Shown: positions 10,696 through 22,453, numbered from the stretch's first letter. The stretch is 64,000 nucleotides of DNA from an uncultured Rikenellaceae bacterium (GCA_964577305.1 CAZNYS010000008.1:12635-76634), one strand, 5' to 3'. Made by a program: numbers and translations. Notes: a model not told the origin generated them from the sequence alone.

Positions 10696-11874
10696 ATGAA
10701 TACACTCTATTACGAATGTTTTTCAGGGATTAGTGGGGATATGAACCTTGGTGCAATGATAGATCTCGGGATTGACAAGGATTATCTTCTAGGCGAGCTG
10801 AAGAAACTGAATCTTGAAGGTTGGAACATGCGAGTCGAAAAAGACCAGCGTCATGGTATTACAGGTACAAAAGTAACTGTTGTACTTACAAAGGAAGAGA
10901 AGAAACACCGTCATCTATCTGATATTAATAATATTATTGAGAAAAGTAGCCTGGACCCGGATGTTAAAACAGTTACACTTCAAATATTCAGGAAAGTTGC
11001 TGAAGCTGAATCTAAAGTACATGATATACCTCTTGAAAAAGTACACTTTCATGAGGTGGGTGCTGTTGACTCAATAATAGATATAACAGGAGCAGCCATA
11101 TGTTATGTCAAACTGGGGATAAAAGACATTATTGTATCCCCCATAGAACTGGGTAGTGGGTTTGTAAAATGTGCACATGGTTTACTTCCGGTTCCTGCAC
11201 CTGCTACAGCGGCGATTCTGGAAGGTATTCCTGTACACAAAGGTAAAGTGGACTTTGAAGCAACTACACCTACAGGAGCAGCAATACTAAGTATTCTGGG
11301 AACCAGGTTTGAAAGTGAACTGAATATGAAGGTTCACAGAACCGGTTATGGTATAGGACAGAGAAATAACCCGGAATTGCCAAATGTGCTGAGAGTTTAC
11401 CTGGGGGAGTCTGCAGGTTTGGAACCAGGAGGGCATCTTTCGTACCTGATAGAGAGCAATATTGATGATATGAATCCTGAAATGTACGAGAACCTTGTAA
11501 ATAAGTTGTTCGAAGCAGGCGCTGCAGATGTATTCCTTTCAAATATTATTATGAAAAAGTCCCGTCCGGGAATAAAAGTCAGTATAATTTGTCAGGCCGG
11601 TAATATTGAAGCTATTAAAGATATTCTATTCCTGGAATCTACAACACTGGGCCTGAGGATTATTCCGTTTGACAAACACACCGCCAGCAGGCAAATAAAT
11701 ATAATAGATACACCATACGGCCCTGTAACAGTTAAATATGCCTATCACGACAATAAACTGATTTCTGCAAAACCTGAAATATCAGATTGTATGGCTATAG
11801 CAGAAAAGAACAAACTGCCTCTTGTTGAGGTTTATAATAATATCATTGCAGTTATTCATGCCGGTAAAAAATAA
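10696..11874 (+). CDS. larC: Nickel-pincer cofactor biosynthesis protein LarC (Ni insertase, DUF111 family), single fused ORF
   Basis: N-terminus YYECFSGISGDMNLGAMIDLG, plus HFHEVGAVDSIIDI, both typical of LarC. Confidence 0.85.
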   Translation: MNTLYYECFSGISGDMNLGAMIDLGIDKDYLLGELKKLNLEGWNMRVEKDQRHGITGTKVTVVLTKEEKKHRHLSDINNIIEKSSLDPDVKTVTLQIFRKVAEAESKVHDIPLEKVHFHEVGAVDSIIDITGAAICYVKLGIKDIIVSPIELGSGFVKCAHGLLPVPAPATAAILEGIPVHKGKVDFEATTPTGAAILSILGTRFESELNMKVHRTGYGIGQRNNPELPNVLRVYLGESAGLEPGGHLSYLIESNIDDMNPEMYENLVNKLFEAGAADVFLSNIIMKKSRPGIKVSIICQAGNIEAIKDILFLESTTLGLRIIPFDKHTASRQINIIDTPYGPVTVKYAYHDNKLISAKPEISDCMAIAEKNKLPLVEVYNNIIAVIHAGKK

Positions 11875-12661
11875 AGTAAAAATATTATGCAGATCTTTCA
11901 GTGACTCGGATAATATCCTGGTAGCATTCTCGGGGGGAGTAGACAGTTCTTTCCTGTTATATGTGCTCAGGATGTTCTCAGGGGCAAGAGTATCAGCGAT
12001 AACAATAAAAACACCTTACATACCTGAATGGGAGATAGATGAAGCAAAAAGTTTCTGTAAATCCTTCAATATAAATCATGAGATTATTGAATTACCCCTG
12101 CATAAGTCTATCATTATGAACCCACCCGACCGGTGTTACCTGTGCAAATCAATATTATTCGGACAGATAAAAGCATATGCTGCCAAAAAGGGATTCAATA
12201 TTATTGCAGACGGCAGTAATGCAGATGATAAGAAGGACTATCGGCCGGGAATGGAAGCGCTTAAAGAGCTTGAGATAAGAAGTCCATTGCTCGAATCGGG
12301 TTTCAGTAAGGAAGAGATAAGGAAACAGCTCAGGGAATACGGCCTGGAAATATGGGACAAGCCTGCCTATGCATGTCTGCTTACACGTATCCCCTATAAT
12401 ACAAGGATTGATAAACGTGATCTCAATATCATAGAAGAAGGAGAAAGATTACTTCACAGCCTTGGTTTCAGAGGTGCACGCGTTCGCCTGCATAACAATA
12501 CAGCGCGTATAGAACTCAGTCCCGGATATTTCAATAAGATACTTGAAGATAAGGTCAGGAAAAAAATAATACGTTCATTCAAAGCCCACGGCATCGAATT
12601 TATCAGTCTCGATCTTGAAGGATACCGTATGGGCAGTATGAACCCAAAAAACATTAAATAA
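11858..12661 (+). CDS. larE: LarE, ATP-dependent sulfur transferase (PP-loop ATP pyrophosphatase)
   Basis: The PP-loop AFSGGVDSS is present. I prefer the ATG at 11858 over the TTG at 11822 listed in the track. It overlaps the larC end by 17 nt. Confidence 0.85.
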   Translation: MPVKNKVKILCRSFSDSDNILVAFSGGVDSSFLLYVLRMFSGARVSAITIKTPYIPEWEIDEAKSFCKSFNINHEIIELPLHKSIIMNPPDRCYLCKSILFGQIKAYAAKKGFNIIADGSNADDKKDYRPGMEALKELEIRSPLLESGFSKEEIRKQLREYGLEIWDKPAYACLLTRIPYNTRIDKRDLNIIEEGERLLHSLGFRGARVRLHNNTARIELSPGYFNKILEDKVRKKIIRSFKAHGIEFISLDLEGYRMGSMNPKNIK

Positions 12662-12666
12662 ATAAT

Positions 12667-13416
12667 ATGAACAGGGAAGGACTAAAAAAAATACTGGAGG
12701 AACTCTCTGAAGGAAAGATAAATGTAGATGATGCAATTGAAAAATTAAAGTACTTTCCATTCAGTGATCTTGGCTTTGCCCGCATTGATCATCATCGTGA
12801 AATACGGACAGGATATCCTGAAATAGTGTTCTGCGAAGGTAAAACCATTGAGCAGGTAAGGGATATTTTCAAACATATATCTGATACGGGACAGAACGTT
12901 ATAGGCACGAGGGCAAGTAAGGATAAATTCAATGCGGTACATTCAATAGCCCCCGAAGCATTGTGGCATGAAGAAGCCAGGATAATAAGTATTATCAGGG
13001 AGAAACATAAAATTGCCGACTCTCCTATTGCAGTTATTACTGCAGGTACATCAGATATACCTGTTGCTGAAGAAGCTGCTGTTACCTGTGAGTTGCTGGG
13101 CAACAGGGTTACCCGTATTTATGATGCCGGGGTAGCAGGAATACACAGGCTCCTGGATCAGCTACCCGAAATAAAGAAATGCAGGGTTGTAATCGTTATT
13201 GCCGGTATGGAGGGAGCACTTGCAAGTGTTGTGGGCGGACTTATTGACAAGCCAGTCATAGCAGTACCGACAAGTGTAGGGTATGGTGCAAATTTCAAGG
13301 GAGTATCAGCCCTCCTCGCTATGCTTACCAGCTGTGCATCAGGAGTAAGCGTGGTAAATATTGATAATGGTTTTGGAGCAGCTTTTAATGCTAGCATGAT
13401 TAACCAGTTAGAATAG
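12667..13416 (+). CDS. larB: LarB, pyridinium-3,5-biscarboxylic acid mononucleotide synthase (PurE-like NaAD carboxylase/hydrolase)
   Basis: 249 aa. It has a PurE-like core (IAVITAGTSDIPVAEEA...VVIVIAGMEGALASVVGG) with the LarB-type N-terminal extension. Confidence 0.88.
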   Translation: MNREGLKKILEELSEGKINVDDAIEKLKYFPFSDLGFARIDHHREIRTGYPEIVFCEGKTIEQVRDIFKHISDTGQNVIGTRASKDKFNAVHSIAPEALWHEEARIISIIREKHKIADSPIAVITAGTSDIPVAEEAAVTCELLGNRVTRIYDAGVAGIHRLLDQLPEIKKCRVVIVIAGMEGALASVVGGLIDKPVIAVPTSVGYGANFKGVSALLAMLTSCASGVSVVNIDNGFGAAFNASMINQLE

Positions 13417-13419
13417 ATC

Positions 13420-14037
13420 GTGGACCGGTACTTATTGATTCTCTCAACAGCATATTATCCACCTGTACAGTACTTTGCCGAGATAATAAAATCAGGGAAG
13501 GTACTTATCGAACAGCATGAGACCTACCCTAAACAAACATACCGTAACCGTTGCTATATTTATTCAGCCAACGGTGTTCTACCTCTGAGTATCCCGGTAG
13601 AAAAAGGTAGTTTTCATAAAGTTAAACTCAGGGATATTAAAATTGATAATTCCAGGAAATGGCAAAGAGAGCATATACATGCTATAAGGTCAGCATATAA
13701 TTCATCTGCATTTTTTGAATTTTATGCTGAGCAGGTATTGCAGCCCCTTGAATCAAAATATGAGTATCTCATTGACCTTAATATGGATATACTGGATATA
13801 TTATTCAAAATCCTGGAAATGAATATTACTGCAGAAAAAACAGTATCATTCATTAAAGAATACGGGGATGATTGCCGGGACATGAGATATAGCCTGTCGC
13901 CGAAATATGGAATCACTTATAAGCCCTGTGAATATTTCCAGGTTTTCAGTCCCGTTCACGGCTTTCAGCCAAACCTGAGCATTATTGATCTCCTGTTTAA
14001 TATGGGACCAGAAACCTGGTCGTGCCTCAGAACCTGA
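13420..14037 (+). CDS. WbqC-like family protein, function unknown
   Basis: GTG start 3 nt after the larB stop. The N-terminus AYYPPVQYFAEI...QTYRNRCYIYSANGVLPLSIPV fits the WbqC-family pattern. Confidence 0.65.
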   Translation: MDRYLLILSTAYYPPVQYFAEIIKSGKVLIEQHETYPKQTYRNRCYIYSANGVLPLSIPVEKGSFHKVKLRDIKIDNSRKWQREHIHAIRSAYNSSAFFEFYAEQVLQPLESKYEYLIDLNMDILDILFKILEMNITAEKTVSFIKEYGDDCRDMRYSLSPKYGITYKPCEYFQVFSPVHGFQPNLSIIDLLFNMGPETWSCLRT

Positions 14038-15508
14038 ACCCAAGAGTTGCTGTTACGAGGTGCCTGTTATAAGTTATCTCAGCAGGATTAATATCAGGAT
14101 GATTATACATGAAGTACATTTCATGGTTTGTTCTCAGGGCATAAGACACGTCAAATGAAAAATTCCTTTGCCTTAAGCCTATACCGCCTGAGTACACAGA
14201 ATGAAAATTATCTTCATTATCCTCTCCTTTTATAAAAGGGCTTCCGTAAATAGCATACCCTGCCCTCATATACAGGGTATTCATTCTGAATTCAGCACCT
14301 AACCGGAGGTTATGTGCTATATCATAAATATCTTTTATGTCCTGGTTTTCATTATAGTAGTTATAATCATCCGAAGCCCTGGAAAACCTTGCCATCCTGT
14401 AATCAACAAATTCATAATCAGCACTAATCATACCTGATTTACCCAGCTGCACAGCTGCACCAGCCATAGCCCTTAAAGGTGTGGTAAGGGTATATGAGAA
14501 CCTGAAAGGTTCATTTTCCCATGTATAGTAGTCACCATTATCAAATTCTGACCTTATATCATCGTAATAGTACTCATCGAGCCGGTAAACTGTTGGTGTA
14601 TGAAAGGCAAAGCCCAGTCTGAGCATTTCTATTGGTTTGACTATCACACCAATTTTGAATGAATAACCCGTACCGGAAGCTTCAACAACATCTCTGTAAG
14701 TAAAGCTATTAAAATCAAATATCAGGTTTTCATTATCCAACTCTGTATGTTCATATGTTGAATATGAGTCAATTTTATTAATCCCCAGAGTGGCTCCCAC
14801 GTATAATTTATGGCTGAAGTTTGCTGACACGCTGAAAGCGTGCTCTCCTGCATATCCTTCACGTGTGATAAGCCGTCTTACTGACTGGCCGTATGTTGAA
14901 TTAGTATTCTCCCCGTATTGAGAGAAGATAGTAGCATATTCATAACCACCTGAACCGCTTAAAGTATCAAGGATCCACACTTCAAAAGCAGCGCCCGGTG
15001 CACCATCGATGTCAGTATAATAGATACCACTGGCAATATCAGTCCAATAGTCGGCCATGGAACTATTATTATTAACACCCCTGATGACTGCATTAACATT
15101 AAAATTATTATTACGGTTAAAGGCATATGCAAAATTTATGCCCGAAAGGCCATCTGTTTTATCCTTGCTGACAAGGGGATAAACAAAGCCTGCCTGGTTG
15201 AGGTTGAATTTATGTGCATATTCGCTGGACTCAGTGTTATTATACTTTGAAAGTGAATTATTATAGTACATTTGCGGGGATAAGCTTATTTCCATTGACC
15301 TGTATACTCCCAGTCCGGCCGGATTCTGGCTCAAAACGGAAAGGTCTCCTCCAAGTGCAGTAAAGGCACCGCCCATAGCCTGGAACCTGGCTGATCCTCC
15401 ATAAAAAAGTTGCGAATACCACAGAGCTTCATCGATAGTCTGCGCCCTGCTTAAAGTCATTGTAGCAATGAAAGTTATAAGTATTATTAATGCTCTTTTC
15501 ATTTTCAT
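14027..15508 (-). CDS. Outer-membrane beta-barrel protein, FadL/PorV-like
   Basis: It has a signal peptide, the N-terminal motif GSARFQAMGGAFTALGGDLSVLSQNPAGLG (similar to FadL/PorV family N-termini), alternating aromatic beta-strand patterning, and a C-terminal ...TATLGFRF. Confidence 0.55.
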   Translation of the reverse strand: MKMKRALIILITFIATMTLSRAQTIDEALWYSQLFYGGSARFQAMGGAFTALGGDLSVLSQNPAGLGVYRSMEISLSPQMYYNNSLSKYNNTESSEYAHKFNLNQAGFVYPLVSKDKTDGLSGINFAYAFNRNNNFNVNAVIRGVNNNSSMADYWTDIASGIYYTDIDGAPGAAFEVWILDTLSGSGGYEYATIFSQYGENTNSTYGQSVRRLITREGYAGEHAFSVSANFSHKLYVGATLGINKIDSYSTYEHTELDNENLIFDFNSFTYRDVVEASGTGYSFKIGVIVKPIEMLRLGFAFHTPTVYRLDEYYYDDIRSEFDNGDYYTWENEPFRFSYTLTTPLRAMAGAAVQLGKSGMISADYEFVDYRMARFSRASDDYNYYNENQDIKDIYDIAHNLRLGAEFRMNTLYMRAGYAIYGSPFIKGEDNEDNFHSVYSGGIGLRQRNFSFDVSYALRTNHEMYFMYNHPDINPAEITYNRHLVTATLGFRF

Positions 15509-15597
15509 TTTTATTAAATGTTACCCTGCCCATCCCATTCGCGGGATGATTTAATCAATTAATGTAACAAGCTAATTCCAATATTTATTCTATCACT

Positions 15598-16905
15598 CTA
15601 TCTCCTGCCTGAGCTTCTGGAACTCGTCGAGGAAGAACTTCTTCCACTGGATGATGACGACCTGCCACTGCTTGATGATACAGAGCTTGAGCGGCCGCTA
15701 CTCACGGATGAAGATCTGCCTACAGAAGAGACACTGCTAGATCCCCTGGAGGACCCCATTGAGGATGATCTTGAATTATTAATAACACTCCTTCCTGATG
15801 TTGAAGAGCGGTTAATAACTGACCTGCTTGTATTTCCAGAGGATGATCTGTTAATGATTGACCTTCCTGACGAACTGTTAATGTTTGTGCTGCTTGATGA
15901 GCGGTTATTTACTACACGTCCTGCGTTACTGTTGGTAACGGTACTGCTTCTACTGTTAGAATTATTATAGGTAGGACGGGTGGTCAGCCTTGGATTTGTA
16001 TATGTTGGCCTGTATGTCCTGCTCTGAGTATTATACTCAGGTTGTGAAGCAGCACGTGTTGTGGTATTAACCTGTGTCCTTCTGTTCAGGCTTGAACTTA
16101 CTGATCTTTCCTGAGGATTAGTGGCATTTCTGACATTTGTATTGCTCGACACCACTGTCTGATTTATCCGTCTGCTGCCTTCGGTACTTCTTGCATTATC
16201 AGATACAGTGGCTGTTGTTCTCCTTGATGATCCTATACTTGATCCGGATCTGTTCCCGGAAGAACTAACATACCTGTTAGACAATGTACTGTATGAACTT
16301 CTTCTTCTTACCGGAGTTGTATAATAATTATTATTACTGTAATACCCAGTATAATATGGCGACATCCATGAGTAGCCATATCCCCAGTACGAGTATGGGC
16401 TGTAATAATAAGAACTACCCCAATAAGGTGAAAAGAACGGATCATAGTAATATGAATAATAATAGGGGCTGTAGAAAGGATCCCACATCCTGTATGAATA
16501 ATACGGGAATCCGTATGTTAATCCATACCTGAATCCGTAATAGAAAGGATCTCTCCAATACGGATCAAAGTAATTACCATAAAAACGGTTCAGGTGGCTT
16601 GCATAAGATACCCTGTCATAATAATCAAAGGCACTGCTTCTATCACTATCATAATACATTAGATCCTTATCATATTCAGCCGGATCGAGATATTCATCTG
16701 CAACCAGTGTATCAAGGTTAAACTGGTCTTCAATTGCTGAAATTGATTCATATGCCTGGTCAGGCACTCCTGCATCCTGCACATATATTTCTCTTGGAGC
16801 AGGTGTATAATAAAGATCATCATATTCACCACTCATATAAAGCGATGAAGAACAACTGCTTAGAAGAAATATTGCTAAAACTGCTATGTAAAGATAAGTT
16901 TTCAT
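15598..16905 (-). CDS. Lipoprotein with a Tyr/Trp/Pro-rich central region and a Ser/Arg/Asn-rich basic tail; no recognised family
   Basis: Lipobox LLSSC; centre ...YYYSYYYDPFFSPYWGSSYYYSPYSYWGYGYSWMSPYY...; tail ...GRSSSVSSSSGRSSSSSGRSSSSTSSRSSGRR. GGAGGT lies 5 nt before the ATG. Confidence 0.7.
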   Translation of the reverse strand: MKTYLYIAVLAIFLLSSCSSSLYMSGEYDDLYYTPAPREIYVQDAGVPDQAYESISAIEDQFNLDTLVADEYLDPAEYDKDLMYYDSDRSSAFDYYDRVSYASHLNRFYGNYFDPYWRDPFYYGFRYGLTYGFPYYSYRMWDPFYSPYYYSYYYDPFFSPYWGSSYYYSPYSYWGYGYSWMSPYYTGYYSNNNYYTTPVRRRSSYSTLSNRYVSSSGNRSGSSIGSSRRTTATVSDNARSTEGSRRINQTVVSSNTNVRNATNPQERSVSSSLNRRTQVNTTTRAASQPEYNTQSRTYRPTYTNPRLTTRPTYNNSNSRSSTVTNSNAGRVVNNRSSSSTNINSSSGRSIINRSSSGNTSRSVINRSSTSGRSVINNSRSSSMGSSRGSSSVSSVGRSSSVSSGRSSSVSSSSGRSSSSSGRSSSSTSSRSSGRR

Positions 16906-16997
16906 TTTTAACCTCCGATCATATTATTTCATCCTAATATTATAAAAGCAAAAACCATACCAATTAATAAAGTATATCGGGCAATGGGCTTCAGTAA

Positions 16998-17005
16998 CAA
17001 ATATA
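16998..17005 (-). promoter_or_regulatory. Candidate -7 box (TATATTTG on the minus strand) for the 15598..16905 gene
   Basis: Exact TAnnTTTG match, but 93 nt upstream of the ATG, which is a longer leader than at the other boxes. Confidence 0.35.
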
Positions 17006-17048
17006 AGATTTTTCTTTGAACCTGGTAGTTTTTCATGATTAATGAAAT

Positions 17049-17075
17049 AAAAAAAAGCAGGCTGTTAACGCCTGC
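17049..17075 (-). terminator. Rho-independent terminator overlapping the stop codon of the 17065..18168 gene
   Basis: The minus strand reads GCAGGC-GTTAACA-GCCTGC followed by T8. The 5' stem arm encodes the final ...GRR-stop. Confidence 0.7.
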
Positions 17076-18168
17076 CTCTTGTTGTTGATGTGGATTTGCT
17101 ATTGTTCCCTGAACTTGAATTGCGCCTTACAGCTTTACTTCCTGAACTCCGGTTACCTGAGCTTTTGACTGCACTGCTGCGTGAGTTTCTGCTGGTTGAA
17201 CTCCTAACTGCACTGTTGCTTGAGCTTCGGCCGGATGAACTTCTAACTGCACTGTTGCGTGAGCTGCTGCTGGTTGAACTTCTAACTGCATTGCTGCTTG
17301 AGCTTCGGCCGGCTGAACTTCTAACTACACTGTTGCGTGAGCTGCTGCTGGTTGAACTTCTAACTGCATTGCTGTTGTTAGTTCTGCCTGTTGAGCTTCT
17401 TACGACAGTGCTGCGTGAAGAAAGATTACCAGTATTATTCCTGTTATTGGTCCGTTCAAGGTTATCTACATTAACCTGTGTTGTCCTTCTGCTATTGTCA
17501 GACCGTACTACATCTGTTGTACGTTGAACGGTATTCCTGTTATAACTTGTCCTGTTTGCACTGGACTCAACACGCCGGCTGTCTTCAGGTCTACTGTAAG
17601 ATGCATACTGTCGTGACGGATAGCGATAATAACTATCGTGGCCAATGTATTTCTGGTAATGATGTTGGGACCTGTAATAGTTATTTGCATAATAGTAGTT
17701 ATTATAGATATGATAATGGTTTCTTATCCTTACCCTGTACCTTACTGTTGGGTATGACCAGTAATAATAATCCGGGTAATAATCCCAGTAGTAATAATCA
17801 GGATAATATCCACCATAGTAAACCCATGGATCGTACCATCCGGTATAATAATATGGATATCCAAAAGTCCAACCAATTCCAAAAGTTGTATTACCGGCAT
17901 ATATACTAATACCCCAGGATGCAGGACGGTAATTATACCAGTATGACTCTGTATAAACCGGGGCATAAAATCCGAAAGATACATATGAACTATGGAAACG
18001 TCTTATTCTGGAGGCGTAGTAGAAATCATGGCCTCTTACCGATGCAGTAACAAGCACACCCGGGCTTGTTTTGTAGTAATCGACCTCTGCAGGTGCCTCC
18101 GCTGATTGTAGTGGAGCTGTTATTGCTAACATTCCTGCTATTAATCCGGTAAAATATTTTGCTTTCAT
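17065..18168 (-). CDS. Secreted paralogue of the Tyr-rich / Ser-Arg-rich protein
   Basis: It has a signal peptide (..APLQSAEA). 26 of 63 residues are Tyr in GYPYYYTGWYDPWVYYGGYYPDYYYWDYYPDYYYWSYP...NNYYYANNYY. The tail consists of 13-aa RSS...AV repeats and ends in GRR like its neighbour. Confidence 0.7.
   Translation of the reverse strand: MKAKYFTGLIAGMLAITAPLQSAEAPAEVDYYKTSPGVLVTASVRGHDFYYASRIRRFHSSYVSFGFYAPVYTESYWYNYRPASWGISIYAGNTTFGIGWTFGYPYYYTGWYDPWVYYGGYYPDYYYWDYYPDYYYWSYPTVRYRVRIRNHYHIYNNYYYANNYYRSQHHYQKYIGHDSYYRYPSRQYASYSRPEDSRRVESSANRTSYNRNTVQRTTDVVRSDNSRRTTQVNVDNLERTNNRNNTGNLSSRSTVVRSSTGRTNNSNAVRSSTSSSSRNSVVRSSAGRSSSSNAVRSSTSSSSRNSAVRSSSGRSSSNSAVRSSTSRNSRSSAVKSSGNRSSGSKAVRRNSSSGNNSKSTSTTRGRR
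17128..17400 (-). repeat. In-frame tandem repeat, about 7 x 39 nt (13-aa RSSxxxxxxNxAV units, also readable as 3 x 78 nt)
   Basis: Residues 257-347 read RSSTGRTNNSNAV / RSSTSSSSRNSVV / RSSAGRSSSSNAV / RSSTSSSSRNSAV / RSSSGRSSSNSAV / RSSTSRNSRSSAV / KSSGNRSSGSKAV. Near-identical DNA copies are visible around 17200-17350. Confidence 0.8.
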
Positions 18169-18263
18169 GACATCCTCCTGCTTTTATATTAACTGTAAGT
18201 TTATTTACTTTGTGCGATAATTTCAGTTTCACTTAACAATTTACAAATTCCATACCAAACACC

Positions 18264-19739
18264 ATGGCAGAATTTTTGACAAAAATGGAAGATAATTATG
18301 CGCAATGGTATAATGACCTGGTAATCAAGGCAGATCTTGCTGAAAACTCTGCAGTGAGAGGATGCATGGTTATTAAACCCTATGGGTATGCTATCTGGGA
18401 GAAGATACAATCTGAACTGGATAAATTATTCAAAGATACCGGTCATGTAAATGCATATTTCCCTCTTTTTATACCCAAGTCTTTCTTTGCAAGGGAAGCT
18501 GATCATGTTGAAGGCTTTGCCAAGGAATGCGCTGTTGTTACACATTACAGGTTAAGAAACAGGCCGGATGGTAAAGGAATAGAAGTTGACCCTGGCGCAA
18601 AACTTGAGGAAGAGCTAATAATCAGGCCAACCTCGGAGACAATTATATGGAATACTTATAAGAATTGGATCCAGTCGTACCGGGATCTACCCATACTTAT
18701 AAACCAGTGGGCAAATGTTGTGAGGTGGGAAATGCGTACAAGGCTCTTCCTTCGGACAACCGAGTTTTTGTGGCAGGAAGGTCATACAGCCCACGCAACC
18801 AGGCAGGAAGCTATTGAAGAAACAAAAACCATAATTGACCTGTACGCTCATTTTGTACAGGATTATATGGGGATCCCGGTACTGAAAGGGTATAAGTCTG
18901 AATCAGAGAAATTTGCCGGGGCAATAGATACATATGCTATTGAGGCACTTATGCAGGACGGTAAATCACTGCAGGCAGGTACCTCTCATTTCCTCGGGCA
19001 GAATTTTGCAAAAGCCTTCGATGTGCAATTCACTGATAAATCAGGAAAACTCAAATATGTATGGTCAACATCATGGGGTGTTTCCACAAGGCTTATGGGG
19101 GCACTGGTGATGGCCCATGGTGATAATCATGGTCTTGTTCTGCCACCAAACCTGGCACCCATACAGGTTGTTATTGTGCCCATTTATAAAGGTAATGACC
19201 AGCTTGATTCAATATCATCCACGGCACTAAAGATCAAATCAGATCTTGAAAAACATGGTCTGAGAGTTAAATATGATGACAGGGATACACATAAACCGGG
19301 ATTTAAATTTGCTGAATACGAACTCAAAGGTGTTCCCTTACGACTGGCTATTGGCCCAAGGGATATAGAGAATGGTACTGTTGAAGTGGCCAGGCGTGAT
19401 ACAATGAGTAAAGAGATAATAAATGTTAATAAGACTGTTGAACACCTAAGTAGCTTACTTACTGATATTCAAATGAACATTTTTAATAAATCATTGGAGT
19501 TCAGAGACAGGAACACCTATAAGGTTGATACCTGGGATGAATTCAGGGATTCAATTGAAAACAGGGGTGGTTTCCTCCTTGCACATTGGGATGGGACAGC
19601 GGAAACAGAAGAAAAGATTAAAAATGAAACCAAGGCGAGCATAAGGATAATACCCTTCGGTAATACATCCGAAGAAGGGAAGTGTGTGTACTCAGGTAAA
19701 CCATCACAAAAAAGAGTGGTTTTTGCAAGGGCATACTGA
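18264..19739 (+). CDS. proS: Prolyl-tRNA synthetase (archaeal/eukaryote-like type, as in Bacteroidota)
   Basis: 491 aa. Class II aaRS motifs are present, and the C-terminus ends in ...ARAY. Confidence 0.93.
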
Positions 19740-19804: not shown

Positions 19805-20497
19805 ATGGAACTTAACGAGCAAAAACTTAAGATCGTAGAAACACTGCAGTATAAGTCGGTTCTCAAACAAAATGTATATGATAATACCGAAGCTGCATTT
19901 GATAAGATAAAAAAACTGCTTGCAGCTTTAACACGTGAAATAAACAGGGATATCATGGATAGCGACAGGAGGATAAGGCTGGTTTATAAGGAAAACGGCA
20001 AATTCGATGTCTCGATAAAAGTAGCAGGTGATATCCTGCTTTTCAGTGTGCATTCTAACGTCTTTGAATTCGACAGGGACCATCCGATCTGGAAAACACC
20101 TTATATCCAAAAGAATAAAGATAATTCATATTCAGGTATAATCAGTATATATAACTTCCTGTCAGATTCATTAAAGTATTCAAGACAGGATGATCTGGGT
20201 TATCTTATTGCCAGAATATTTATTAACCGTGAAAACCAGTACTTTGTGGAGGGCAAGCGCCAGATGGCCATGCTCTTTTCCAACTTCGGAAATGAAGAGC
20301 TGGGAAGGGAAGCACTTAAGAGAATAATCTTTACTGCCATACAATACTCTCTCGAGTTTGACCTACTGGTACCTCCCTATGATAATGTAAAAATAGCCTC
20401 GGTTGGCCAGCTTGAAAAAAAGATTCAGTTATCAAAAATGGTTACAGGCAAAAGACTGGGCTTCAAGTTCAATTCTGATGATGTGCTGAAAGAATAG
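19805..20497 (+). CDS. Hypothetical protein (230 aa), no family recognised
   Basis: Clean ORF with no overlaps. It is followed after 36 nt by the Omp85-like gene. Confidence 0.55.
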   Translation: MELNEQKLKIVETLQYKSVLKQNVYDNTEAAFDKIKKLLAALTREINRDIMDSDRRIRLVYKENGKFDVSIKVAGDILLFSVHSNVFEFDRDHPIWKTPYIQKNKDNSYSGIISIYNFLSDSLKYSRQDDLGYLIARIFINRENQYFVEGKRQMAMLFSNFGNEELGREALKRIIFTAIQYSLEFDLLVPPYDNVKIASVGQLEKKIQLSKMVTGKRLGFKFNSDDVLKE

Positions 20498-20533
20498 TCT
20501 GTGCTGCTGAAAAAAGGTAAAGGAAAAATTATT

Positions 20534-22453
20534 ATGGCTAAATTCAGGCAAATATCATTACTGCTTGGGGTTATAATGTCATTATATACAATACGCTCCT
20601 ATACTCAAACAAATACCTTTCTGAAGCCTGTAAGAGTAGCCGGGGGATCATACGTGAGCATAAACGACTCACTGGTTTACCTCAAAAATGACACAGTCAT
20701 ATACATATCAGACAGCTACATGCCTCAGGACACCAGCATTTATAACCAGACTCTGGTCTTTTATGATTCGCTTAAAGCAAAGGCTGAAAGGAAAAATTTC
20801 ACAAAAATACTCTATGACCTTGTTATTATCCCTCCGGCAAAGGCAAGTTCCAAGAGAATAAATGAGAGAAATATTGATAACTATACTGAGCACAACGGTA
20901 AAATTATAAGGCATATATTCATTAGGAGACTCAATGCATTCGGATCGACAATCAATGATCCCGAGTCTTCCCTGGAAAATGAACCGGAGTTCTTCCTTAA
21001 CAAAACCCATATAAAAACCAGGGAATATATAATTAAGAATTATCTCCTTATTGAAGAAAATGACAGCCTTGTACCACATAAAGTATCTGAAAGTGAACGC
21101 CTTCTGAGGCAACTGCCGTATATTCATGATGCCAGGATTGTCATCATACCGGTAAACAGCATGGAAGTTGACATAATGGTTATAACAAAAGATATTTATT
21201 CATTGGGCTTAATGCCAGATATCCATGGTTATAATGTGGGAAAGATATCAATCTTTGATAAAAACCTTTTCGGCTTTGGTCATGAGCTGGAAGTGGAAAT
21301 CCCATACGATTACAGGAACTATAACTCCATCGGCTTTGGTGCCGCCTACACTTTGAAAAATATCAGCCGGACAATGATCGATGTTAAACTGGAATATAAA
21401 GATGCTTTCAACAGAAGGGTTGCAGGAGTTGATATATCAAGAAAATTCCTGACTGCTTATACAAAATATGCAGGTGGTATAGCGCTATATGAATCATACG
21501 TTTTAGAAGACCTTGACACCCTTACTATACCTGAACCGGTGGAATACAATAATTTTGACTTATGGTTCGGCAGGTCATATCTAATTGATAATAATTTTAC
21601 AAGAGCGGTTATTTCAGGCCGATACATAAATAATAATGTATGGAACAGACCTGAAATAACAAGTACCTCGTATTATGTATATCAGAAATACAAAATTTAC
21701 CTTGCATCCTTTTCTCTGGTATCACAACGATTCTACAAGTCCAATCTGATTTATAATTACGGAAGGAGTGAAGATATACCCTACGGTGGTATTGTTGAAT
21801 TGACTTACGGTAAGGAATATAGTGAATTCGACATAAGAGATTATATTTCCATTAAATCTGCTTTTGGCAACTTTGTTCCTAATGTCGGATATTTATATGG
21901 CCGGGGGATAATATCAACATTTGTGAAAGAGAACAGAACTGAACAGGGCCTTCTTCAATTGCACTTTAAATATATATCCGATTTATATGATCTCAGGTCA
22001 TATAAACTCAGGTTATTTGGAACACTTGACTATAGCAAGGGCTTTTACAGGTATAAGGATGAACACCTTGCTATTGGAGAAGATAACGGAATACGTGGCT
22101 TCAAGAATAATTATCTTTTCCCGGATCAGAGGTTATACCTTAACCTCGAAGCTGTGGCATTCAGTAAAGTATTTTTTTATGGATTCAGGTTTGCTGTTTT
22201 TGGTTTTGCTGATATCGTATTATTTGCACGGGACAAAATGTTCTATGAATATGACAACATGGTGTCAGGTTTTGGCATTGGCTTCAGGGTAAGGAATGAG
22301 AACCTGGTTTTTAAAACATTCCAGGTAAGATTTGGTATATATCCCGGTGCACCACCACACTCAATAATGCAATATGTCGATATCGACGGTGAACGATTGC
22401 TCAATCCACCGGGCTTCGATCCACAGGCTCCCGGTGTAACAAAATTCCGATAA
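20534..22453 (+). CDS. Putative Omp85-superfamily outer-membrane protein (POTRA-like segment plus beta-barrel)
   Basis: The ATG at 20534 gives the signal peptide MAKFRQISLLLGVIMSLYTIRSYTQ (the track lists GTG at 20501). There is a POTRA-like stretch IIRHIFIRRLNAFG...SERLLRQLPYIHDARIVIIPVNSMEVDIMVITKD, and the C-terminal half is rich in aromatic/Gly residues. Confidence 0.5.
   Translation: MAKFRQISLLLGVIMSLYTIRSYTQTNTFLKPVRVAGGSYVSINDSLVYLKNDTVIYISDSYMPQDTSIYNQTLVFYDSLKAKAERKNFTKILYDLVIIPPAKASSKRINERNIDNYTEHNGKIIRHIFIRRLNAFGSTINDPESSLENEPEFFLNKTHIKTREYIIKNYLLIEENDSLVPHKVSESERLLRQLPYIHDARIVIIPVNSMEVDIMVITKDIYSLGLMPDIHGYNVGKISIFDKNLFGFGHELEVEIPYDYRNYNSIGFGAAYTLKNISRTMIDVKLEYKDAFNRRVAGVDISRKFLTAYTKYAGGIALYESYVLEDLDTLTIPEPVEYNNFDLWFGRSYLIDNNFTRAVISGRYINNNVWNRPEITSTSYYVYQKYKIYLASFSLVSQRFYKSNLIYNYGRSEDIPYGGIVELTYGKEYSEFDIRDYISIKSAFGNFVPNVGYLYGRGIISTFVKENRTEQGLLQLHFKYISDLYDLRSYKLRLFGTLDYSKGFYRYKDEHLAIGEDNGIRGFKNNYLFPDQRLYLNLEAVAFSKVFFYGFRFAVFGFADIVLFARDKMFYEYDNMVSGFGIGFRVRNENLVFKTFQVRFGIYPGAPPHSIMQYVDIDGERLLNPPGFDPQAPGVTKFR

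Follow-up and report, generated by a model that had tools for sequence, protein, structure and literature searches.

A tyrosine-rich lipoprotein, its lipid-less paralog and a FadL-fold barrel as a candidate outer-membrane module of uncultured Bacteroidales

Architecture and kinship of the two tyrosine-rich proteins

What do two exported proteins, each carrying a block crowded with Tyr and a long, basic Ser/Arg-rich tail, do next to the gene of an outer-membrane barrel? The question is raised by three open reading frames of the window, a stretch of 64,000 nucleotides from an uncultured Rikenellaceae bacterium. All three were recovered where the initial annotation had placed them: gene A (17065..18168) and gene B (15598..16905), directly upstream of the barrel gene C (14027..15508), all on the minus strand, as are the features within them. 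The composition of A and B is beyond chance. Among the 49 window ORFs of at least 150 aa, the Tyr count per 63 residues reached 26 in A and 24 in B, with a median of 5 and a next best of 12, and the S/R/N/T/V count per 150 residues was 125 and 119, with 63 for the next ORF; no third ORF of the 49 came close. The totals are 46 Tyr and 43 Arg for A, and 52 and 43 for B. The front halves are each about 31% aromatic and are followed by Ser/Arg/Asn/Thr tails of 180-240 residues (net charge +28 in A, +32 in B), both ending in GRR. The architecture described initially (Tyr block, S/R/N/T/V tail, GRR end) was thus reproduced, including the exact count of 26 Tyr in 63 residues of A, and it is retained in 64-73 orthologues per protein. 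Two details needed correction: the acidic N-region holds for the B family (median net charge of the head -10) and not for the A family (+4), and the tail length of 170-200 residues suits A (183 aa) and not B (about 235 residues).

Protein A (367 aa; supported by its ORF, 30 homologues, their alignment and dN/dS) starts with a signal peptide, MKAKYFTGLIAGMLAITAPLQSAEA (18094..18168), read from the sequence, which lacks a lipobox; A contains no Cys anywhere, only 1 of 75 A orthologues has a lipobox, and the N-terminus MKAKYYIG...A-Q is conserved in the family alignment. It continues with an aromatic core, DFYYASRIRRFH...YWYNYRPASWGISIY (17899..18027), defined by invariant alignment columns, among them S-R-I-x-R-F-H, and common to B and to the hybrid lipoproteins described below. 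The Tyr block (17674..17862, residues 103-165), whose DNA holds 2.4 copies of a 27-bp repeat, and a His/Asn/Tyr region lead to the polycationic tail (17068..17616), of 183 aa and predicted to be disordered (pLDDT about 40); residues 185-367 are 80% S/R/N/T/V, and a 78-bp (26-aa) unit is repeated there 3.2 times in tandem (17168..17418). AF2 gave no fold for A (mean pLDDT 42). The C-terminus is R[RK] in 55 of 75 orthologues.

Protein B (435 aa; supported by its ORF, 22 homologues, their alignment, full-length orthologues and motif counts) is, as judged by its signal peptide, lipobox and invariant Cys, a bacterial lipoprotein. The signal peptide (16852..16905) ends in LLSSC, Cys18 is invariant in the alignment and is the sole Cys of B, and the lipobox is present in 70 of 74 orthologues. 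Shortly after it lies EYDDLYY (16807..16827), a candidate docking segment in which D29, D30, L31 and Y32 are invariant; DDLYY stands at +11 or +12 from the lipid Cys in all 70 of 70 orthologues, and most of the hybrids examined have a motif of this type between +9 and +14. An acidic linker separates it from a diverged core, YASHLNRFYGNYFDPYWRDPFYYG (16534..16605), homologous by hhalign to the SRIxRFH core of A, whose pattern recurs in 58/74 orthologues. The Tyr/Gly block that follows, YYYSYYYDPFFSPYWGSSYYYSPYSYWGYGYSWMSPYY (16351..16464, read from the sequence and beginning, as quoted, at residue 148), keeps its Y/G/F/W/M/P composition among orthologues and not its sequence. The Ser/Arg tail (15601..16311) spans 237 aa; residues 199-435 are 78% S/R/N/T/V, and across the family the medians stand at 235 aa for length, 80% for S/R/N/T/G/K/Q/P content and +23 for net charge. 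It embeds short motifs, one of them QPEYNTQSRTYRPTYTNPRLTTRPTYNNS (15958..16044), with the pattern PxYxxxxRxYxPxYxNPR in 64/74 orthologues; hybrids carry a related RTYT[PS]P motif. B ends in Arg-Arg in 69/74. In the tails, sequence varies, but charge and composition are conserved, as are the embedded motifs and the RR at the end.

Neither protein has a match in Pfam, NCBIfam or the PDB; in Pfam this held at E up to 1 for both, Por_Secre_tail included. Relatives occupy at least 351 places in species-representative genomes, all of uncultured Bacteroidales, and a profile built on the A core matched 465 clusters. On these searches A and B are members of an undescribed family, in keeping with the initial remark that no characterised family has this composition. 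They had also been called paralogs. A direct BLASTP of A against B was not significant (E 0.57). Profile-profile alignment with hhalign joined them at 99.1% probability (E 6e-19), and each matched the same hybrid lipoproteins, single genes found in other lineages, with BLASTP E values of 1e-15 to 1e-16. By these profile and hybrid matches, A and B are distant paralogs, and the same two results point to their origin from a hybrid-type lipoprotein.

The barrel gene, its linkage and the signals around it

Gene C encodes a 493-aa protein with more than 3500 homologues, some of them named OmpP1/FadL (Pfam Toluene_X, E 7.7e-7). Against PF03349 it scored 28.4 bits, with a gathering threshold of 29.7, and many of its orthologues have a precomputed PF03349 match. 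The AF2 model (pLDDT 90.2, pTM 0.83) has a FadL-type fold and an N-terminal plug, with short helices (residues 24-68) ahead of the first strand. Foldseek returned EcFadL, PaFadL, TodX, TbuX, CymD and BamG at E 1e-12 to 3e-15, with a probability of 1.00 for the first five. Of the initial description of C as a FadL/PorV-like barrel, the FadL half agrees with the modelled fold. The PorV half does not hold, as PorV_fam (NF033709) gave 32.8 bits against a 90-bit cut-off, over residues 36-103 only, and no PorV structure was among the 50 Foldseek matches listed.

Linkage of the Tyr-rich gene(s) to a barrel of about 490 aa was found at every sufficiently long locus among the 86 loci. Four further loci keep the pair, with Maf, DUF1294, nuo or TerC genes downstream, and their barrels are full-length C orthologues (31-34% identity). 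The pair, Tyr-rich protein and then barrel, lies divergent from proS in five different gene neighbourhoods, so that the synteny to which the initial annotation had pointed holds up under changes of the flanking genes. The gap between B and C is 78-85 bp in most loci.

This spacer contains a conserved stem-loop, TCATCCCG-CGAA-TGGGATGG (15530..15549, minus strand), and directly after it a conserved box (15509..15529, minus strand). The stem pairs at 6/6 positions in 35 of 42 spacers (null mean 2.3), with compensatory variants and 44 G-U cells, and has no match in Rfam. Gene A is followed by an intrinsic-terminator-like hairpin, GGCAGGC-GTTAACA-GCCTGC plus T8 (17049..17076, minus strand), in which the Gly-Arg-Arg codons of A make up the 5' arm and the stop codon lies in the loop; close relatives share this arrangement, and a hairpin of -8 kcal/mol or stronger with a T run follows A at 35/75 loci. 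Upstream of B there is a -7 box of the Bacteroidetes type, TATATTTG (16998..17005). At two hybrid loci (L087 and L091) terminator-like hairpins separate the hybrid gene from that of the barrel. Together with the structured spacer before C, the terminator that follows A suggests an excess of the Tyr-rich proteins over the barrel.

Possible roles of the three genes

We tentatively propose that B, and through B also A, docks on C, and that the polycationic tails reach into the periplasm and bind an anionic partner, a reading that we regard as possible rather than probable. A, B and C would then form a lineage-specific outer-membrane module. B would be the cognate outer-membrane lipoprotein of C, with its anchor in the inner leaflet and its protein part towards the periplasm, and A its lipid-less paralog, derived by duplication of an ancestral single lipoprotein. 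The lipidated N-terminal segment of B (Cys, with DDxYY at +11) and the aromatic core would dock it on the barrel; A would join via like-with-like contacts of the Tyr/Gly-rich cores, and the Tyr-rich proteins would outnumber the barrel. The disordered Ser/Arg-rich tails (180-240 residues, net about +25) would extend into the periplasm and serve as tether, spacer or scaffold. Their partner could be peptidoglycan, phospholipid or LPS head groups or, alternatively, a protein recognising the RxYTPxYxNPR and C-terminal Arg-Arg motifs. The module is favoured because the pairing survives rearrangement of the neighbourhood and because FadL-family barrels of Bacteroidota are documented docking platforms for lipoproteins; the invariance of the N-terminal segment of B, set at a constant spacing from its lipid Cys, is a further argument, as are the missing surface-sorting signals, the lack of a predicted fold in A, the conserved features of the tails, the common origin of A and B and the expression signals. 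Against the module, the terminator argues that A is at least partly a separate transcription unit, and periplasmic proteases would have access to a basic tail of such length and disorder.

The initial annotation had instead proposed a surface matrix, adhesive or polyanion-binding coat of self-associating Tyr/Arg stickers, exported or held by the barrel, in which B could be an anchored nucleator and A the abundant extender. The sticker idea fits the Tyr/Arg counts, which resemble those of FUS-type proteins, and both A and B combine a Tyr-rich low-complexity block with an Arg-rich disordered one; that the aromatic block keeps composition and not sequence also speaks for it. An anchored protein with a lipid-less paralog that has its own terminator recalls CsgB/CsgA, and Tyr/Gly/Asn-rich disordered sequence does occur at the cell surface in Bacteroidota, in an extracellular loop of BamA (PMC12578637). 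The sorting signals, however, lend the surface coat no support. Surface export of Bacteroidota lipoproteins is signalled by no fewer than two acidic residues in the six or so positions after the lipid Cys (PMC5080379, PMC12578637), a rule derived in Capnocytophaga, Bacteroides and Flavobacterium, and the position of the signal is critical (PMC5080379). None of 70 B orthologues has D or E in those six positions, so that B does not classify as surface-exposed by this signal, and a T9SS C-terminal domain is absent from both proteins. Moreover, the ancestral state would be a single anchored lipoprotein rather than a two-part fibre system, and we know of no FadL-family barrel that secretes proteins. 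The missing export signal and T9SS domain make a periplasm-facing position likelier than a surface coat, and we consider the latter unlikely. This lineage may depart from the export rule, and an atypical export signal could lie in the conserved DD at +11 of B.

Slightly less likely again, in our judgement, is that A and B have nothing to do with C, being fast-evolving envelope filler or spacer proteins of generic role, kept beside it by an old, rarely broken gene order. Part of the conserved order may indeed be old synteny, since proS, with no obvious functional link, is always adjacent too and is as constant a neighbour as the barrel. The whole 12-gene neighbourhood is frozen in the three-gene lineage, and the terminator of A and the -7 box upstream of B likewise suit independent genes. 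Yet the outer genes on both sides vary across the five contexts, whereas the pair stays together, with one orientation and little space between its members, and the spacer holds a conserved sense-strand RNA hairpin.

We find it doubtful that C simply takes up hydrophobic or aromatic compounds as other FadL-type channels do, with A and B as acceptors or sinks for its substrate on the periplasmic side. Its FadL/TodX/TbuX fold and helical plug region, the OmpP1/FadL transporter label that some sources give its orthologues, the roughly 31% aromatic heads and the many carrier MAGs from reactor, sediment, soil and fen samples (by record titles) would all agree with uptake. Such a role accounts neither for the long polycationic tails nor for their conserved motifs and terminal RR, no binding fold is predicted, and no fatty-acid or aromatic catabolic genes stand consistently near the pair in the loci compared. 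That low-complexity or repetitive DNA merely mimics genes here, as the tandem repeats in the tails, the many partial or frameshifted database entries and the opposite-strand shadow ORFs might suggest, is scarcely credible and already refuted by sequence evolution: frames of 1.1-1.3 kb stay open in at least 70 species, signal peptide or lipobox, invariant motifs and C-terminus are all conserved, and heads and tails alike are under purifying selection (dN/dS about 0.1-0.3; A 0.11-0.29, its tail 0.14-0.29; tail of B 0.16-0.23), which on the homologue side excludes the low-complexity ORFs without homologues that the initial annotation had allowed for.

The docked module could also take a more far-reaching form, in which B, docked at C, nucleates abundant soluble A into a condensate- or gel-like layer inside the envelope, assembled by aromatic-arginine contacts and polyanion binding. 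We regard this as a long shot. If it were true, these Bacteroidales would have a protein-based periplasmic or outer-membrane-proximal scaffold, to our knowledge the first envelope-localised sticker-and-spacer system in bacteria.

Comparison with known systems

Curli combine an anchored nucleator, CsgB, with a secreted major-subunit paralog, CsgA. A and B lack their Q/N-rich imperfect repeats, no CsgG-type channel accompanies them, and their ancestor would be a single lipoprotein. We rejected A and B as curli or Fap amyloids: neither has a Pfam or NCBIfam match, and the adjoining barrel has a FadL fold, not that of CsgG or FapF. Peptidoglycan tethers like Lpp or Pal/OmpA, which use a C-terminal Lys for covalent linkage or an OmpA-like peptidoglycan-binding domain, were likewise discarded, the C-terminus being Arg-Arg in most B and R[RK] in most A orthologues, with no OmpA-family match. 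The FUS family shares with A and B a Tyr/Gly-rich low-complexity block and an Arg-rich disordered block of conserved composition; it is, however, eukaryotic and nuclear, with no homology to them. Loop EL3 of BamA, from the same phylum, is also a disordered Tyr-rich envelope segment, but one of 38 residues in a barrel and not a separate protein. In RcsF, which acts with OmpA/C/F, and in LpoA/LpoB, disordered and partly basic segments of outer-membrane lipoproteins pass through the membrane or stretch away from it and so contact a barrel or a periplasmic target. Those linkers have 30-60 residues and run into a folded domain, whereas A and B have 200-300 disordered residues and none folded; RcsF and LpoA/LpoB have no sequence similarity to A or B.

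Among barrels, C shares with FadL/TodX/TbuX (PF03349) the fold and the N-terminal plug region, with a weak Pfam match; for the characterised channels we know of no dedicated Tyr-rich partner. PorV and PorQ, the T9SS shuttle and anchor barrels, are also FadL-like Bacteroidota barrels that bind other proteins, and C has a weak N-terminal PorV_fam match; their partners carry the T9SS C-terminal domain that A and B lack.

BamG-BamH offers a further likeness, as BamG is a FadL-family 14-stranded barrel with a lipoprotein partner (PMC12611786, PMC12578637), and three BamG structures were among the top five Foldseek matches of C. C is nonetheless about 90 residues longer, and its identity to BamG (12-13%) and TM-scores are similar and equal, respectively, to those against FadL. 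The PDB, which includes three BamG chains, yielded nothing at E up to 10 to a profile of 53 C orthologues, and C was rejected as a BamG orthologue. BamG is marked by 10-12 residues more than FadL at its N-terminus; the highly conserved mature N-terminus of C has some 14 residues before a GGSARF motif, counted by eye and unaligned to FadL or BamG. The lipoprotein BamH is folded and surface-exposed and carries an acidic export signal, whereas B is mostly disordered and lacks the signal. The points of contact are that a conserved lipidated N-terminal segment of BamH binds the barrel BamG, and that the genes of a paralogous pair, BamG2-BamH2, are neighbours in a putative operon (PMC12611786, PMC12578637).

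Two tyrosine-rich proteins and their undescribed family

Three genes lie on the minus strand between wbqC and proS: A (17065..18168, 367 aa), which encodes a Tyr-rich protein with an N-terminal signal peptide and no cysteine; B (15598..16905, 435 aa), which encodes a Tyr-rich lipoprotein whose signal ends in LLSSC and whose lipobox Cys is its sole cysteine; and C (14027..15508, 493 aa), the adjoining outer-membrane barrel gene. In composition A and B stand far apart from the rest of the 49 window ORFs that are 150 aa or longer: counted per 63 residues they reach 26 and 24 Tyr (median 5, next best 12), and per 150 residues 125 and 119 S/R/N/T/V (next best 63). The Tyr block quoted for A in the initial annotation corresponds to residues 103-165 and holds the 26 Tyr in 63 residues claimed; that of B begins at residue 148. 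The same annotation described an acidic/aromatic N-region in both proteins, of which the acidic character did not hold for A overall, and Ser/Arg-rich tails of some 170 to 200 residues ending in GRR. These tails are real (residues 185-367 in A and 199-435 in B; S/R/N/T/V share 80% and 78%; net charge +28 and +32) and both do end in GRR, but that of B is longer than was stated. They contain young tandem repeats, with 3.2 copies of a 78-bp unit in A (17168..17418) and a 27-bp unit in B. The long ORFs on the opposite strand at 17090..17527, 17478..17909 and 16284..16532 (all plus strand; one encodes a Leu-rich sequence) are not genes; they arise as shadows of the codon runs for Ser/Arg and Tyr.

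Since direct BLASTP of A against B was not significant (E 0.57), the proposed paralogy was established through family profiles and through the hybrids, single Tyr-rich proteins of other lineages (435-650 aa, mostly lipoproteins) that are matched by both. The A and B family profiles align at 99.1% probability (E 5.8e-19), a score to which the signal peptides contribute in part, and the hybrid matches are the stronger evidence. The A-core profile recovered the hybrid type at E 1e-14 to 1e-8; with composition adjustment, A of the window matched the hybrid core at E 1e-16, and the alignments of B with several hybrids began at residue 1 (best E 1e-15). The hybrids begin like B, with a lipobox and then DDxYY, continue with an A-like core (YAYSSRIRRFH...YWYNYDP) and a Gly/Trp/Tyr block, and finish with a long basic polar tail containing RTYT[PS]P and a basic C-terminus. 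The simplest history would be a duplication of a single lipoprotein in the window's lineage, after which A would have kept the core but neither the lipid anchor nor DDxYY; B would have kept both of these as well as the tail motif, and its core would have diverged.

As the annotation had supposed, no characterised family accommodates these proteins: neither A nor B had a Pfam or NCBIfam match at E up to 1, and a PDB sequence search with the A-family profile gave no meaningful match. Queries with the non-repetitive N-terminal halves recovered 30 A relatives and 22 B relatives, which, where an organism was given, came from uncultured Bacteroidales or Bacteroidetes. A scan of species-representative genomes located at least 351 places encoding an A relative, the best 80 of which were all in MAGs, and the A-core profile gathered 465 clusters at 50% identity (E up to 1e-3), the distant relatives being labelled as Bacteroidales or Bacteroidia bacteria. 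No cultured carrier was found among the relatives, and the carrier species were sampled from reactors, sediments, soils, fens and the like. At least several hundred uncultured Bacteroidales species carry two conserved genes outside any described family. Database entries for the family are in many cases incomplete or carry frameshifts: assemblies break, or lose the reading frame, within the repetitive tails, so that public annotation under-represents these proteins and is often partial or wrong. Contigs often stop inside these tails (loci L012, L013, L014, L036, L037, L065, L069 and L081; proteins P0013 and P0018), and some predicted family proteins switch frame there. Full-text searches of the literature on tyrosine-rich or disordered Bacteroidetes lipoproteins, and on FadL-linked disordered lipoproteins of Bacteroidota, turned up no paper on such a family. 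A make-up of one third aromatic residues with a polycationic (+25) disordered tail is otherwise linked with eukaryotic phase-separating proteins.

Invariant in the A family are S-R-I-x-R-F-H and the following YWYNYxPxSWGISIY, and in the B family the lipobox Cys, DDLY, a D-T-L triplet and FYGNYFxPYWRDPFYY. Across 64-73 orthologues of each protein the heads (the aromatic front halves) contain 31-32% Tyr/Trp/Phe, and the tails measure about 210-235 residues, some 80% of them S/R/N/T/G/K/Q/P, with a net charge of +23 to +25. Judged by their sequences, the tails are not featureless. The motif PxYxxxxRxYxPxYxNPR (window 15958..16044) recurs in 64 of 74 B orthologues, alongside YGRRERPS-like and YSxPSR motifs, and the C-terminus is Arg-Arg in 69/74 B orthologues and R[RK] in 55/75 of those of A. 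A covalent, Lpp-like link of this C-terminus to peptidoglycan is unsupported, the last residue being Arg and not Lys. AlphaFold2 predicted no fold for A past the signal helix (23 sequences, mean pLDDT 42), a model that fits disorder or folding only upon binding. After its core, at residues ~150-185 (window ~17614..17720), A has a His/Asn/Tyr-rich stretch, HYHIYNNYYY...HHYQKYIGH in the window and WNRHNHGYNDYRP in relatives, for which a metal-binding role is conceivable. In B, residues 64-72 (LDTLVADEY; window 16690..16716) hold the invariant D-T-L triplet; the general O-glycosylation sequon of Bacteroidetes is D-(S/T)-(A/I/L/V/M/T), so B may be O-glycosylated at Thr66.

Expression signals around the genes

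A is followed by a terminator-like hairpin with a T8 run (17049..17076), whose 5' arm and loop are formed by the end codons of the gene (GGC AGG CGT TAA), with the stop codon inside the loop, an arrangement repeated in close relatives. A hairpin of at least -8 kcal/mol strength with a T run was present after A in 35 of 75 loci. As the Gly-Arg-Arg codons build the hairpin, in this subclade the conserved end of the protein and the RNA structure limit each other's freedom to change. We rejected the idea that the terminator stem of A alone accounts for GRR, since B and the distant hybrids, which lack that hairpin, have basic ends too. Upstream of B lies TATATTTG (16998..17005), a -7 box of the Bacteroidetes type.

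The spacer between B and C (15509..15597 in the window) is tightly conserved in length, mostly 78-85 bp, and carries a stem-loop at a fixed position (15530..15549), where a hairpin with 5 bp or more is present in 56 of 57 spacers. When the alignment was used to set the 5' arm, the stem pairs at 6/6 positions in 35 of 42 spacers, a count that is somewhat favourable as the 42 were chosen among those already showing the hairpin; in 1000 shuffles scored under the identical register optimisation, the mean was 2.3 and the maximum 8. The arms vary in a compensatory manner (CATTCT/GGAGTG, CATTCT/AGAATG, CATCCC/GGGATG, CTTCCC/GGGAAG, ACCTTC/GAAGGT and TCCCGC/GCGGGA), and the G-U pairs, in 44 of 252 cells, point to a structure in the sense-strand RNA, hence to transcription that proceeds from B towards C. 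RNAalifold returned no structure from the MAFFT alignment of the spacers because the 3' arms are out of register there; counting the best hairpin anywhere in each spacer was uninformative, the DNA being AT-rich, and an Rfam search of window 13800..18400 gave no match. The stem-loop might serve to stabilise a 3' end, as an attenuator or as an operator. Past it, some 20-25 nt before the start codon of C, comes a conserved GGGATAGTnTTTAAnAAAAA-like box. In L087 and L091, two loci with one Tyr-rich gene plus the barrel, a terminator-like hairpin separates the two genes. We read these signals as a design that would yield more Tyr-rich protein than barrel. Shine-Dalgarno sites are uncommon in Bacteroidota; AGGAGG/GGAGG sequences of this kind, at 18170..18185 and 16908..16920, precede the start codons of A and B by 6-7 nt and might mark unusually efficient translation, and none was found before the start codon of C.

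A FadL-fold barrel and its possible tyrosine-rich partners

The initial annotation had called C FadL- or PorV-like. The match of C to the Pfam FadL/Toluene_X family fell just short of the threshold (28.4 bits against 29.7), and the PorV_fam match was weak and N-terminal (32.8 bits, cut-off 90). AlphaFold2 modelled C with confidence (53 orthologues, pLDDT 90.2, pTM 0.83), and in Foldseek against the PDB the top matches were all FadL-family barrels: Bacteroides thetaiotaomicron BamG (E 3e-15), Escherichia coli FadL, Porphyromonas gingivalis BamG, Flavobacterium johnsoniae BamG, Pseudomonas aeruginosa FadL, TbuX and TodX, with no PorV among the 50 matches listed. The TM-scores of C are equal for BamG and FadL (identity 10-13%). 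Many of its more than 3500 homologues carry PF03349, some being named OmpP1/FadL transporters. The FadL half of the proposal was thus upheld and the PorV half was not. Orthology to BamG was rejected as well, since the C-family profile found no PDB match at E up to 10. From the fold matches and this profile result, C belongs to a distinct clade of the FadL fold that is neither PorV nor a BamG orthologue; the fold is known, the clade is new.

In recently reported structures, FadL-family barrels of Bacteroidota act as docking platforms for lipoproteins, as BamG does for BamH (PMC12611786, PMC12578637). By analogy, it is possible, and we propose it tentatively, that B, and through it A, docks on C while the tails bind an anionic partner in the periplasm. 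The contacts of B with the barrel would be made by its aromatic core and by the conserved N-terminal segment that bears the lipid, A would be recruited by homotypic contacts of the Tyr/Gly-rich cores, and the polycationic tails would reach into the periplasm, with RxYTPxYxNPR and the terminal Arg-Arg as specific contact points for the partner.

The annotation itself had speculated on a surface adhesive or condensate coat, suggested by the Tyr/Arg composition, which we consider unlikely. Surface lipoproteins of Bacteroidota carry acidic residues within about 6 positions of the lipid Cys, where position is critical (PMC5080379), a rule also applied in PMC12578637. None of 70 B orthologues has D or E in the six positions after the lipid Cys, and all 70 have DD[LIV]Y at +11 or +12; the motif lies at +9 to +14 in most hybrid lipoproteins examined, and close to the predicted mature N-terminus in the hybrid variants without a visible lipobox. 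No T9SS C-terminal domain was found in A or B. By present sorting rules both proteins should face the periplasm, and the conserved N-terminal segment of B seems more likely to mediate an interaction than to direct sorting.

That A/B and C are functionally independent and merely inherited their gene order seems to us rather improbable. Synteny with the barrel gene, which the annotation had wished to see tested, is conserved, with one order (p650-p230-proS on one strand, A-B-C on the other, then wbqC-larB-larE-larC) in every long-enough locus among 86; ProRS is 72-92% identical across these loci, so that their order alone could be explained as frozen synteny. In four further hybrid-type loci, proS and a divergent Tyr-rich gene are followed by a protein of 472-501 aa, with Maf, DUF1294, nuo or TerC downstream and different genes beyond proS too. 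In the two of these loci that were compared with C, the protein is a full-length orthologue (34% and 31% identity). As the pair persists despite changed outer genes, the core module pairs a FadL-fold barrel with a disordered, Tyr-rich protein.

The neighbourhood has further features. In every context examined, even where every other neighbour differs, proS divergently adjoins the Tyr-rich gene across a gap of about 90-120 bp (window 18169..18263; L001-L091). Downstream of proS, the 230-aa (19805..20497) and 650-aa (20501..22453) proteins have no Pfam family; the former is kept beside proS, L087 included (38% identity), and the latter, with a weak BamA/Omp85 match (TIGR03303, E 1.2e-6, 27 bits, cut-off 297), looks like a distant Omp85-type barrel. 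On the strand opposite to A-B-C, 10696..14037 carries larC (Ni_insertion), a larE-like gene (PP-loop), larB (AIRC) and a WbqC-family gene; the lar genes look like a nickel-pincer cofactor synthesis set and adjoin A-B-C only in the three-gene lineage. A nickel link between LarB/LarC/LarE and the His/Asn stretch of A as the driver of linkage was rejected, because the Lar genes lie on the other strand and are missing beside the module in the four other contexts.

Decidedly unlikely is that C is a conventional FadL uptake channel for which A/B serve as acceptor on the periplasmic side. That the A/B ORFs are artefacts has next to no probability, the dN/dS values of the tails against close relatives (0.14-0.29 in A, 0.16-0.23 in B; heads 0.11-0.23 and 0.09-0.18, C 0.04-0.09; dS is high and the repeats render the alignment uncertain) indicating purifying selection even on low-complexity sequence.

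For docking on C, the fixed pairing with a FadL-fold barrel suggests that the barrel-docking principle of BamG-BamH extends to a disordered partner. Bacteroidota are, to our knowledge, a phylum without Lpp. Should the tails serve the envelope as tether or scaffold, they would be a novel way of organising the outer membrane in this phylum. The closest functional analogies are BamH on BamG and the RcsF- and LpoB-type lipoproteins, which have disordered linkers; in composition, A and B resemble FUS-type Tyr/Arg proteins and the disordered, Tyr/Gly/Asn-rich EL3 loop of Bacteroidota BamA.
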